DNA from: a virus
Taxonomy: Duplodnaviria > Heunggongvirae > Uroviricota > Caudoviricetes
Reading direction: 5' to 3' (one strand)
DNA: 7,515 bases
IMG/VR virus record: IMGVR_UViG_2526164690_000027
Coordinates: 1 to 7,515 of that record
A model generated the notes under the pieces. That model was given only the letters and a program-made list of their open reading frames with translations, was not told the origin of the DNA and ran no database searches. The position numbers and the translations under genes are program-made. How positions within the stretch are numbered: the stretch's first letter is position 1; each line of letters starts with the position of its first letter. Positions 5,192 through 7,515 of the stretch are shown one piece after another.

Positions 5192-5419
5192 TTATATGAA
5201 CAGCCATCGCAGAGCATACTGTGTATCATTCTTTTTTATAGTCAACTGACGGGCATATTTTATGTCTGCTGCCAGCTCCCGGCGGCAAGATTCAATGACC
5301 CACGCAGAAAAATTTTCTGAACCTTTCTGGTCAAGAGCGATGTTAATTTGTTCAATCATCTGGTTTGGAAATCGGATGTTGCGGGTTGTTGTTCTGCGGG
5401 GCCGGTTTTTCGATGACAT
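5192..5419 (-). CDS. Small DNA-binding-like protein, YlcI-like (DUF3950 / ribbon-helix-helix-like), 75 aa, divergent from the HNH gene
   Basis: Minus-strand ORF with SD-like AGAGGA ~7 nt upstream of the ATG (plus 5417-5419). N-terminal basic stretch then RNIRFPNQMIEQINIALDQKG...FSAWVIESCRREL, recalled as the YlcI-type small protein found next to terminase genes in E. coli cryptic prophages. Family assignment is from memory. Confidence 0.55.
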   Translation of the reverse strand: MSSKNRPRRTTTRNIRFPNQMIEQINIALDQKGSENFSAWVIESCRRELAADIKYARQLTIKKNDTQYALRWLFI

Positions 5420-5460: not shown

Positions 5461-5826
5461 ATGGCTGTGCTTCGTACGTTACCGGGCAGAATCAAAACTC
5501 TGAATACCCGGCGGGTGAATGTCCTGAAGGGTGAACAGCGTCGGGTCAGTGGCAGTGCACGTGTTTCCCTCAAGCGTCGTATCTGGCTGAGGGATGCCGG
5601 GCAGTGCTGTCTCTGTGGTCGTGTGGTTGACCTCTGTGACAGTGAACTCGATCACCGAATTGCACTTCAGTTCGGTGGTGGTAATGAGGAGACGAATCTC
5701 TGGACGCTCTGTACCGAATGCCATCGACAAAAGTCTGCTCGTGAAGTGGCGGGTGGTATGCCGGACCCGACGCTGCCGGAGGTGTCCGGAGGTCATGGCA
5801 GGGCAGACGATATCATCGGACTGTGA
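5461..5826 (+). CDS. HNH endonuclease, terminase-associated (HK97 gp74-like)
   Basis: 121-aa ORF with SD AGGA 6 nt upstream. Classic HNH architecture: C-C-L-C ... D-H ... N-L-W ... C-T-E-C-H. Located immediately upstream of the cos-like region and terS, as in HK97-like phages. Confidence 0.85.
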   Translation: MAVLRTLPGRIKTLNTRRVNVLKGEQRRVSGSARVSLKRRIWLRDAGQCCLCGRVVDLCDSELDHRIALQFGGGNEETNLWTLCTECHRQKSAREVAGGMPDPTLPEVSGGHGRADDIIGL

Positions 5827-5900
5827 CCCGCCCCGGGGGGGGGATCATCCGGCGAAAAAAACGATCCGCCCCGGACACCGCCCCCCGTCTCATGCAGAAG
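5827..5900. other. GC-rich segment with a G9 homopolymer; candidate cos cleavage (cosN-like) region
   Basis: CCCGCCCCGGGGGGGGG at 5828-5843, then GATCATCCGGCG, an A7 run, and CGATCCGCCCCGGACACCGCCCCCCG. Lies between the HNH and terS genes, where cos sits in HK97-like phages. The exact nick sites cannot be determined from sequence alone. Confidence 0.25.
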
Positions 5901-5917
5901 AAAAAATTCCTGTTCAG

Positions 5918-5939
5918 GCCAGTTAACATGTTAACTGGC
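5918..5939. repeat. 22-bp perfect palindrome GCCAGTTAACATGTTAACTGGC (followed by 8-bp palindrome GCCCGGGC at 5941-5948)
   Basis: Sequence 5918-5939 equals its own reverse complement (verified base by base). The flanking pair 5917/5940 breaks the symmetry. Confidence 0.9.
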
Positions 5940-6044
5940 TGCCCGGGCATTTTTCGGTTTTTATCTTTATTATTCAGTTTGTTGTGCGAAAAAAATGTTA
6001 ACTGGCTTTTTCAGCAAATGTTAACCAGGCAGCAGTTAACATTT
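5918..6044. promoter_or_regulatory. Array of GTTAAC-centred half-sites (consensus CAGTTAACAT); putative terminase small-subunit binding region (cosB-like) or other dimeric-protein operator
   Basis: Five GTTAAC cores at 5922, 5930, 5997, 6020 and 6035. ATGTTAACTGGC at 5995-6006 is identical to the right half of the palindrome. ATGTTAACCAGGC at 6018-6030 and GCAGTTAACAT at 6032-6042 form an inverted pair with a 9-bp spacer. An AT-rich spacer (5950-5994) separates the palindrome from the other sites. Confidence 0.4.
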
Positions 6045-6116
6045 GCGGCATGAGACGCCGGGAAAAATGGGCTGAACCATACCCGGCTGAGTGCGTTATG
6101 GACCCGGGAGGAGGCT

Positions 6117-6680
6117 GTGCTGACAACGCAAAAACGAAAATTTGCGCTGGCGCTCATGTCCGGGAAAAACAAAACAGCGTCAGCCATTGCCGCTGGTTAT
6201 TCGGCGAAGACCGCCAGGGTTAAAGGCTCGCAGCTGGCAAAAGATCCGGAGGTGCTTGCGTTTATAGCCCGTAAACAATGCGAGACGGTGGAGGTGGATG
6301 AGGTTCCTGTTTACCGGCAGAAAAAATCAGAGCAGGAGGATAAACCCCGTCGCCGTGAGGCGGCTGCAATACCACAGCCGGACGAAAACAATCCGGAGAT
6401 GCCACCGTCCGCGGTGATGTCTCCTGGTATTGAATATATGGAGGATGGTCTTCCCGATCCGGTGAAAGCGATGGGGCGTCTTCTGGTGGAGAACATTAAT
6501 ACCGACCCCAGGCTGGCGCTGGATGCGGCTTATAAGCTGGCGCAGTTCACGCACCATAAAAAAGGGGATGCCGGTAAAAAATCGGCAAAAGGTGACGCGG
6601 CGAAAAAAGCGGCTAACCGTTTTGCGGTGCCACCACCACCCCGCCTGGTGGTGAATAATGATAATGAGGGCAACGAATGA
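6117..6680 (+). CDS. terS: Terminase small subunit (Terminase_2-like, N-terminal HTH DNA-binding domain)
   Basis: GTG start at 6117 with SD GGAGG at 6107-6111. N-terminus ...KRKFALALMSGKNKTASAIAAGYSAKTARVKGSQLAKDPEV... matches the conserved small-terminase DNA-binding motif (AGYS..TA...GS.L) from memory. Stop overlaps the terL start (ATGA at 6677-6680). Confidence 0.85.
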   Translation: MLTTQKRKFALALMSGKNKTASAIAAGYSAKTARVKGSQLAKDPEVLAFIARKQCETVEVDEVPVYRQKKSEQEDKPRRREAAAIPQPDENNPEMPPSAVMSPGIEYMEDGLPDPVKAMGRLLVENINTDPRLALDAAYKLAQFTHHKKGDAGKKSAKGDAAKKAANRFAVPPPPRLVVNNDNEGNE

Positions 6681-7515
6681 TACCTGTGTGGAGCACGGCC
6701 TGCCCGGACTGGGCAGAGCGCCTGAAAAAGGGGCTGTCGATTATTCCGGCTCCGATTTATCCGGAGCAGGCTGCACATGCACTGGCGATTTTTAAACAAC
6801 TGCGGATTGTGGATGCACCGGGTAGCCCGACATTCGGGGAGTCCTGTGCACCGTGGGTGTTTGACCTGGTGGCGGCCCTGTTTGGCTCCTACGATGCGCA
6901 GACCGGTGTTCGCCATATCAAGGAAGTGTTTATCCTTATCCCCAAGAAAAACAGTAAGTCCACGCTGGCCGCGGGGATCATGATGACGGCGCTGTTACTG
7001 AACTGGCGGCAGGCGGCGGGCTACACCATTCTGGCCCCGACCGTGGAGGTGGCGGCTAACGCCTTCAACCCTGCCAGGGATATGGTACGACGGGACGATG
7101 ATCTGGATGACCTCTGTCAGGTGCAGACACATATCCGGACCATCACCCATCGGGTGACGGACACCACCCTGAAGGTGGTGGCAGCCGATCCGAATACGGT
7201 GTCCGGTATCAAGTCCGTGGGGACACTGATTGATGAACTGTGGCTGTTTGGCAAGCAGTACAAGGCGGAAGACATGCTACGTGAAGCCATCGGCGGGCTT
7301 GCCTCCCGTCCGGAAGGGTTTGTGGTGTATACGACCACCCAGTCGAATGAAACCGCCCGCCGGGGTGTTCAGACAGAAACTGCAGTATGCCCGGGATGTC
7401 CGTGACGGCAAAATTCATGATCCGCACTTTCTGCCGGTGATTTTTGAGCATCCTCCTGAAATGGTGGAAAGCGGGGCTCATCTGCTGATGGAAACCTCGC
7501 CATGGTTAACCCGAA
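6677..7515 (+). pseudogene. terL: Terminase large subunit, N-terminal ATPase domain; reading frame broken by an apparent +1 frameshift near 7349-7353; continues in the 0-frame to the window end (3'-partial)
   Basis: Frame-2 ORF 6677-7405 (242 aa) contains a deviant Walker A ...ILIPKKNSKST... but is far too short for a TerL. Its last 17 codons (TARRGVQTETAVCPGCP) look non-protein-like. The 0-frame is open from 7230 to the window end and reads protein-like from 7353 (PPAGVFRQKLQYARDVRDGKIHDPHFLPVIFEHPPEMVESGAHLLMETSPWLT). Junction is at the GAAA tract 7349-7352. Could be a real mutation or a sequencing error. Confidence 0.55.

Follow-up and report, generated by a model that had tools for sequence, protein, structure and literature searches.

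Between the HNH endonuclease and small terminase (terS) genes of a lambdoid, Stx-converting-type prophage of the group now classified as Pankowvirus lies a cluster of short, inverted and repeated sequences, and the question raised by this locus is which protein reads the cluster and in what process. The stretch of DNA analysed here (the window, 7,515 nt) is 94–98% identical to BP-4795, 2851, 1717, YYZ-2008 and many Stx1a, Stx2a and Stx2c phages. Its genes are arranged in the order lysis cassette, DUF3950 gene (minus strand), HNH, a 290-bp intergenic region, terS and terL. The HNH gene (5461–5826, plus strand; Pfam PF01844, E=7e-7, above the curated cut-off) occupies a packaging-associated position like that of HK97 gp74, and the homologous gene is annotated as an HNH endonuclease in related phage records. 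The terS gene (6117–6680, plus strand) begins with GTG after a GGAGG sequence and encodes an SF6/SPP1 G1P-type small terminase (PF03592). An earlier note on this DNA had placed the repeats between these two genes, and the gene coordinates agree with that placement. The DUF3950 (YlcI/YnfO family) open reading frame further upstream (5192–5419, minus strand) has a pattern suggestive of a ribbon-helix-helix DNA-binding protein.

The most conspicuous element of the cluster is a perfect 22-bp palindrome, GCCAGTTAACATGTTAACTGGC, at 5918–5939 (GCCAGTTAACA/TGTTAACTGGC), found by reading the sequence and by a repeat finder. A palindrome of this length was reached in none of 500 dinucleotide-preserving shuffles of the window, in which the largest was 20 bp; analytically, 0.0017 would be expected per window, so that the improbability claimed for it by the earlier note is upheld. 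The palindrome includes two copies of the sequence GTTAACAT, which occurs five times in the window, at 5922–5929 (+), 5928–5935 (−), 5995–6002 (−), 6018–6025 (−) and 6035–6042 (+). All five copies are confined to 121 bp (5922–6042) with none elsewhere in the 7,515 bases; the expected count is 0.28, and five copies were reached in 0 of 200 shuffles. Sites 1 and 2 form the palindrome, which consists of GCCAGTTAACAT joined to GTTAACTGGC, and are followed by an AT-rich spacer with T-tracts (5940–5994) that contains a conserved core, CTTTATTATTCAGTTTGTTG (5966–5985). Site 3 (5995–6006, minus strand) is an exact second copy of the palindrome right half, ATGTTAACTGGC. Sites 4 and 5 (6014–6046) constitute an inverted pair, GCAAATGTTAAC-N9-GTTAACATTTGC, in which the 12-nt arms (6014–6025 and 6035–6046) are 100% complementary and the intervening 9 bp, CAGGCAGCA, are conserved. 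The three additional half-sites described earlier (the exact right-half copy and the inverted pair with its 9-bp spacer) were thereby all recovered. In one orientation, all five copies fit the extended half-site consensus GCCAGTTAACAT(T).

The position of this array relative to the ends of the packaged genome can be judged from Lys8385Vzw, a phage whose TerS is 99.5% identical to that of the window. Its DNA was sequenced from induced virions, and PhageTerm assigned a 10-nt 3′ overhang, CGCCCCCCCT, at the record end (PMC7946995). The record ends with ...GGACACCGCCCCCCCT and begins with CTCACGCAGAG... (also written CTCACGCAGAGAAAAAATTCC...), and the first 50,000 bp of its 50,953 bp contain six copies of GTTAACAT, five of which are located within the first 155 bp. 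The homologue of the cohesive end in the window, CGCCCCCCGT, is found at 5879–5888 (plus strand), from which the mature left end would begin at 5889, a position assigned by homology from one relative and one method (PhageTerm). Since the published end corresponds to 5879–5888, the array lies on the terS side of the cut, between cosN and terS, with the palindrome starting at +30 relative to the mature left end, the array extending from +30 to +158 and terS starting at +229. By this homology, the array and terS are thus placed 30 bp and 229 bp past the cohesive end, respectively, which is where cosB is located in lambda and the small-terminase site in HK97. The GC-rich block upstream of the array, proposed earlier as a candidate cleavage region, holds the cohesive-end homologue. 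A mapping of virion ends, suggested earlier as a check, is available for the relative, the ends of which are cohesive and homologous to the sequence beside the array.

The cohesive-end homologue is part of a conserved cos core (5833–5912, plus strand) composed of a G-run (5835–5843), GGACACC followed by a C-run (5873–5886) and an A-tract (5899–5908). This core is common to all lineages aligned, including satellites with a different TerS, and matches to the core pattern GGACACCGCNCCCCNNCTCA were found in phages, in satellites and in a low-GC lineage. With the gene order HNH-cos-terS-terL in the window and a 3′ cohesive end in a close relative, the cleavage system is of the HK97 HNH-assisted 3′-cos type. 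Two other potential sources of information on the termini were set aside, namely contigs of draft assemblies that end at the cos position (L070 and L179), as breaks at repeated prophage DNA can explain these, and the note on cohesive ends in the phi330 record, the paper for which contains no terminus data.

The protein encoded immediately downstream of the array belongs to the SF6/SPP1 G1P family. Residues 2–57 of TerS match Pfam PF03592 (Terminase_2) with 35.8 bits against a cut-off of 26.1 (E=1.5e-8), and the N-terminal helix-turn-helix (residues 1–55) is modelled by AlphaFold as a four-helix domain with pLDDT >90, the central region of the monomer model being of low confidence. The top Foldseek matches of the N-domain are structures of the SF6 small terminase DNA-binding domain (4zc3/2cmp; TM 0.82–0.84, rmsd 1.6–2.6 Å, 29–30% identity, probability 1.00), which TerS also matches weakly by sequence. 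In the AlphaFold model, the predicted recognition helix comprises residues 33–41, with Thr32 as its N-cap and residue 35 in the first turn. SF6/SPP1-type small terminases are ring oligomers (8–11 subunits) and other lineages use direct repeats (see below); the dimeric binding protein that had been deduced from the palindrome is hence not established. The two GTTAAC cores in the palindrome are spaced 8 bp, which is unusual for a simple helix-turn-helix dimer.

Polymorphism among 62 close haplotypes was uninformative as a test of the array, the whole interval being 94–98% identical, and the evidence for its conservation comes from diverged lineages, represented by contigs with a TerS 67–86% identical to that of the window. 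Four further lineages of this kind keep the architecture: the palindromic pair stands near +30 and is followed by the AT-rich spacer with its conserved core, then by one lone site and finally by the inverted pair, the 9-bp spacer of which is likewise conserved. The inverted-pair arrangement of sites 4 and 5 is conserved in L160, L162, L173 and an island of E. coli 042 (see below). Across the lineages with a KTARV helix in TerS (n=4), no variation is seen in 35 of 38 core columns, compared with 88 of the 196 remaining non-coding columns (Fisher p=1.8e-8), the columns being those from the cos end to the terS ribosome-binding site in an alignment anchored partly by the motifs themselves.

Where the DNA-binding domain of TerS differs, the repeats differ in a coordinated manner. 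L162–L164 have KSARC in the TerS helix, and each of their five sites has the sequence [G/A]TAAACAT (ATAAACAT or GTAAACAT), with no shift in position (+34, +39, +107, +131 and +149). L161 has the same KSARC helix, and its short contig, which reaches back only to the inverted pair, reads GTAAACAT there. In L160, the flank GCCAG/CTGGC is replaced by GGTGG/CCACC on both palindrome arms and at the unpaired site 3, the flank of which co-varies with those of the palindrome (CCACC in L160, TACCC in L162). In at least five types of lineage, the kind of repeat goes with the kind of TerS N-domain, against a constant cosN, although the sites lie within 250 bp of the terS 5′ end and physical linkage alone can give some correlation between TerS and repeats. 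The comparison among phages with homologous TerS that the earlier note had called for has thus found that half-sites co-vary with the TerS DNA-binding domain. The suggestion that the half-sites define the packaging specificity of this phage group is favoured by the same observations, the binding of TerS to them being proposed from sequence comparison.

Elements with the same cut site but a different TerS domain extend this pattern. Satellite-like islands that encode their own TerS were detected in two types, P0059 (L165–L167, L185 and L253) and P0053 (L171–L172). Their genes include those for a primase or AlpA, and no terL, HNH or DUF3950 gene was found in the 1.5-kb flanks examined. Their TerS proteins are 59–70% identical to that of the window in the C-domain vs 47–55% in the N-domain, and they keep the G-run, GGACACCGCCCCCCGTCTCAT and the A-tract, with AAGTTACAC repeats starting at +30. 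In the P0059 type there is also a gene for a 307-residue protein homologous to the capsid domain in the protease-capsid fusion of Pankowvirus (E=6e-19), which is reminiscent of SaPIbov5 Ccm. The composition of the P0059- and P0053-type islands points to Pankowvirus-type phages as their putative helpers. A low-GC lineage (L190, L202, L224, L249, L254 and others), in which the TerS helix reads KTASAAGARL, has the same G-run/GGACACC/C-run core and direct AAGTTAAA repeats at +31, +44 and +55 (11–13 bp apart), with further copies inside the terS coding region. From the satellites with their own TerS and the low-GC lineage it follows that the repeats change along with the DNA-binding domain of TerS and that the cut site does not.

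A third kind of element lacks terS altogether. In E. coli 042, an island of ∼9.5 kb between yljB and clpS (L295, 5940–6160; L296), without terS, terL or HNH, encodes an integrase, an Icd-like protein, a RepA helicase, a capsid-protease fusion and a YlcI/YnfO (DUF3950) protein; the capsid-protease fusion has no detectable similarity to the Pankowvirus capsid protein. The island possesses the G-run, cosN and all five GTTAACAT sites, arranged as in the window and at 75% identity, and its similarity to the window ends directly after site 5. This natural deletion analysis points to the cos core plus the array as the presumed cis-acting unit and excludes a role tied to terS expression. Characterized E. 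coli PICIs use lambda/phi80-type cos and Rpp (PMC6092414, PMC6739421), unlike the islands with Pankowvirus-type cos found here. A link between PICI-like islands and a Pankowvirus-type cos was not found in the literature searched.

The five GCCAGTTAACAT half-sites at 5918–6046 are likely to constitute the cis-acting TerS recognition region of cos, resembling lambda cosB in kind and read by a small terminase of the SF6/SPP1 type. The cosB-like, TerS-binding array put forward earlier as the simplest reading is favoured, as a candidate, by its position, its selective conservation, its co-variation with TerS and its retention in an island without terS, and, as in cosB-type regions, several short copies are found (five) that appear specific for their TerS, the repeat type tracking the N-domain. 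It is proposed that the N-terminal helix-turn-helix domains of a TerS oligomer bind the repeats, beginning 30 bp inside the mature left end, and that bending or wrapping of the DNA is made possible by the AT-rich spacer with its T-tracts. Once bound, TerS would bring TerL and HNH into position over the shared cos core, made up of the G-run, the GGACACC with its C-run and the A-tract. TerL and HNH would then cut the core to leave a 10-nt 3′ overhang, and packaging would start toward terS. In such a scheme the shared core would serve as the cutting signal and the repeats as a specificity label that differs according to the TerS DNA-binding domain; the binding of TerS, the bending or wrapping of the DNA and this division of labour between core and repeats are postulated from comparative evidence.

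It is unlikely that the repeats are instead bound by another protein, such as the DUF3950 product, HNH, TerL or the host proteins IHF or Fis, and that the array regulates late transcription or cos cleavage. The DUF3950 gene is located ∼500 bp upstream, the terS-less island of E. coli 042 also encodes a YlcI/YnfO protein, and ribbon-helix-helix proteins typically have arrays of inverted and direct repeats as their sites. However, the DUF3950 gene is absent next to HNH in L162–L164, in which all five sites of the array are nevertheless intact and have undergone a coordinated base change, and the satellites with their own TerS, in whose examined flanks neither DUF3950 nor HNH was detected, yet have their own repeats at +30. 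DUF3950 genes are furthermore present in lambda-type prophages with unrelated cos sites. For a host protein, the conserved AT-rich core provides a one-mismatch, IHF-like match (5972–5984), but the motif of a host protein should not differ between lineages of E. coli, and the TerS N-domain is the only DNA-binding domain that varies in step with the repeat type. A canonical IHF site was rejected, as only this one-mismatch match was found, other lineages have two mismatches and the pattern is frequent (23 matches in the window vs 10.4 expected); an IHF-induced bend in the spacer is possible but weakly indicated.

An explanation based on secondary structure, in which the palindrome and the pair formed by sites 4 and 5 act as RNA stem-loops that stabilize, process or attenuate the terS mRNA, or as DNA cruciforms at cos, is very unlikely. 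The centroid RNA fold does keep a 12-bp stem with a 9-nt loop at 6014–6046 and a hairpin at the palindrome, changes in the arms between lineages preserve complementarity, the sequence of the 9-nt loop is conserved, and there is a weak terminator-like stem with a T-run at 5943–5957. Against this, the fold of 5889–6125 is no more stable than those of shuffled sequences (z=−1.16), the unpaired site 3 co-varies with the other sites, and the palindrome arm variants of L173 are non-complementary. In addition, the repeats of the satellites and of the low-GC lineage are direct and so unable to fold into hairpins, and the island without terS keeps the array with no terS mRNA to regulate. No Rfam match was obtained at E<=1 within 5700–6300. 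A Rho-independent terminator was also considered and rejected, the hits not exceeding the expectation from shuffles (3 vs 1.1±0.9) and the stem at 5943–5957 not being conserved in L160, L162 or L173; the 22-bp palindrome is itself followed by 10 non-T bases, contrary to what a terminator would have.

Recognition by TerS being the favoured role, the origin of the array can be approached through more distant relatives, comprising 20 Enterobacterales prophages and Salmonella phage FSL SP-016, the TerS proteins of which are 33–49% identical to that of the window. These share the cos core (G-run, GGACACCGC(G)CCCCC and TCTCACGCACAGAAAAAATTCCCC), and in them only ∼45 bp separate the C-run from the start of terS, which reads GTAAAC-ATG-TTA-ACA. 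Homology to this start, ATGTTAACA in the 20 Enterobacterales relatives, is found in the palindrome right arm of the window, ATGTTAAC, the ATG of which (5928) stands at their terS-start position. In the window, terS starts 190 bp further on as GTG CTG ACA and the motif has been lost there through synonymous changes. It would seem from this that the Pankowvirus array was derived by expansion of a motif pair that ancestrally overlapped the start of terS, and the short-type relatives, with ∼45 bp from cos to terS and a single motif pair, indicate that a five-site array is not obligatory for the terminase family. Downstream of site 5, an inverted partial copy of the right flank of cos, GCATGAGACGCCGGG (6048–6062, minus strand; 87% complementary to 5881–5895), suggests that the 190 bp of extra DNA are the product of a local inverted duplication; this copy is not part of the unit that the terS-less island of E. 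coli 042 has retained, similarity there stopping after site 5. Many of the short-intergenic relatives (L001 and L085–L104) have GTAAACAT both ∼30 bp upstream and ∼37 bp downstream of the cos core. The downstream copy overlaps the terS start codon, and its occupation could link the recognition of DNA for packaging with the translation of terS; in the window, the upstream copy is degenerate and reads GAAAAAAAC. A small protein translated from the ancestral terS ATG (a 42-codon open reading frame, 5928–6053) was rejected, as its ribosome-binding site has been lost and the frame is not conserved, a 1-bp indel breaking it in nine haplotypes including Lys8385Vzw. The least likely reading of all is that the array has no function and was left behind when local duplications and inversions of the segment from cos to the terS start moved that start 190 bp downstream. 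The homology of the right arm to the ancestral start, the inverted copy of the cos flank and the disrupted reading frame would agree with it, but even decay would then be expected, and instead the cores are invariant and the spacers diverged, the distances of the sites from the cos end are constant between lineages, the five sites change in concert and an unrelated island retains the array without terS.

The short-intergenic clade also bears on how TerS may discriminate between half-sites. At the first site of this clade, a KTARS helix is accompanied by GTTAACGT and a KSARS helix by [G/A]TAAACAT at the same offset, so that the association of Thr32 with T and of Ser32 with A at the third core base holds in two clades. 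The two Thr/Ser events, the only independent switches seen, are treated as separate in view of the 87% identity between the N-domain of the long-type Ser variant and that of the window. A more far-reaching reading, in which the repeats constitute a packaging barcode at a fixed +30 from a universal cos core, combined with a rule for residue 32, three kinds of exploiter and Pankowvirus helpers, is advanced tentatively, its prospects of holding in all these parts together being somewhat worse than even. If it were true, a single N-cap residue would set the central base of the half-site (GTTAAC for Thr32, GTAAAC for Ser32). The same cutting machinery would be exploited by phages, by satellites with their own TerS and a capsid homologue, and by terS-less copiers, and the Pankowvirus-type Stx phages would represent the missing helpers of orphan TerS-encoding, PICI-like islands of E. 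coli.

Several features of the proposed recognition region are shared with characterized systems, and others differ. In lambda, cosB is composed of the sites R3-I1-R2-R1, which are bound by gpNu1, of the winged helix-turn-helix family, with an IHF bend at I1. As in lambda, the region described here contains multiple sites just downstream of the nicking site on the terminase-gene side, with repeated half-sites separated by an AT-rich, probably bent spacer, and it appears to determine packaging specificity, with a cosN that would be shareable between specificity groups. It is not a lambda cosB in the strict sense, because TerS matches PF03592 and no Nu1 family, the overhang is a 10-nt 3′ extension vs the 12-nt 5′ extension of lambda, and the half-site is unrelated in sequence to the lambda R sites; the match to IHF is weak, with one mismatch. 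The difference from the lambda R-site consensus noted earlier agrees with this. The pac region of SPP1/SF6, in which the pacL and pacR boxes are bound by G1P, has several short repeats over 100–200 bp of intrinsically bent DNA, and the TerS family and DNA-binding fold are the same as in the window. SPP1, however, packages by a headful (pac) mechanism and its sites flank the cut on both sides, whereas cohesive ends and an array on one side are found here. HK97 resembles the window in the adjacency of its HNH gene to terS/terL, in its 10-nt 3′ overhang and in TerS recognition just downstream of the cut, its TerS site lying 15–29 bp downstream of the cut with an A-tract nearby (PMC11331095). The HK97 site is a single 15-bp sequence read through the TerS channel and an arginine clamp, in contrast to the five-site array of ∼129 bp in the window, the TerS of which, unlike that of HK97, has an N-terminal domain matching the SF6 DNA-binding domain. 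The islands, finally, resemble cases of satellite packaging piracy (the SaPI TerS and the cos-carrying SaPIbov5 with its Ccm) in that they either encode their own TerS with a helper-like C-domain or have copied the cos and array of the helper, one island type encoding a homologue of the helper capsid domain as SaPIbov5 does with Ccm.

The interval from cos to terS (5889–6116) is present in 1,282 of 5,426 complete E. coli genomes, at up to seven places per genome, and no feature is annotated over it in any of the matches listed from these 1,282 genomes. The kind of signal is known; this recognition region, most likely a set of docking sites, has not previously been described for the phage group, no account of a cosB for Pankowvirus-type phages having been found in the literature searched. 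The HNH-cos phages of the group carry stx1, stx2a and stx2c. A cis-acting signal, together with the TerS residue that appears to read it, would explain which terminase packages which prophages and islands in strains that harbour many related prophages, and would offer a simple sequence rule for predicting cross-packaging and the satellite-mediated mobilization of virulence genes. The lineages also provide natural specificity variants for studying DNA recognition by SF6-type TerS, which is still debated, and it is the cleanness of these variants together with the connections to satellites that raises the interest of the locus.

Relative to Lys8385Vzw, the terL of the window (region 6677–7515) has an extra A at 7350 and lacks one base at 7491 (a +1 and a −1 frameshift), which puts stop codons at 7403–7405. 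With stops between the two frameshifts, the large terminase of this prophage may be defective; alternatively, these differences could be homopolymer sequencing errors. In the PPompW prophages of O157 strains (H83–H89), the IS110-family element ISEc20 is annotated just upstream of the point at which similarity to the window begins (∼5839, in the G-run), an insertion that parts the G-run from the nicking site, with a possible loss of cos function.
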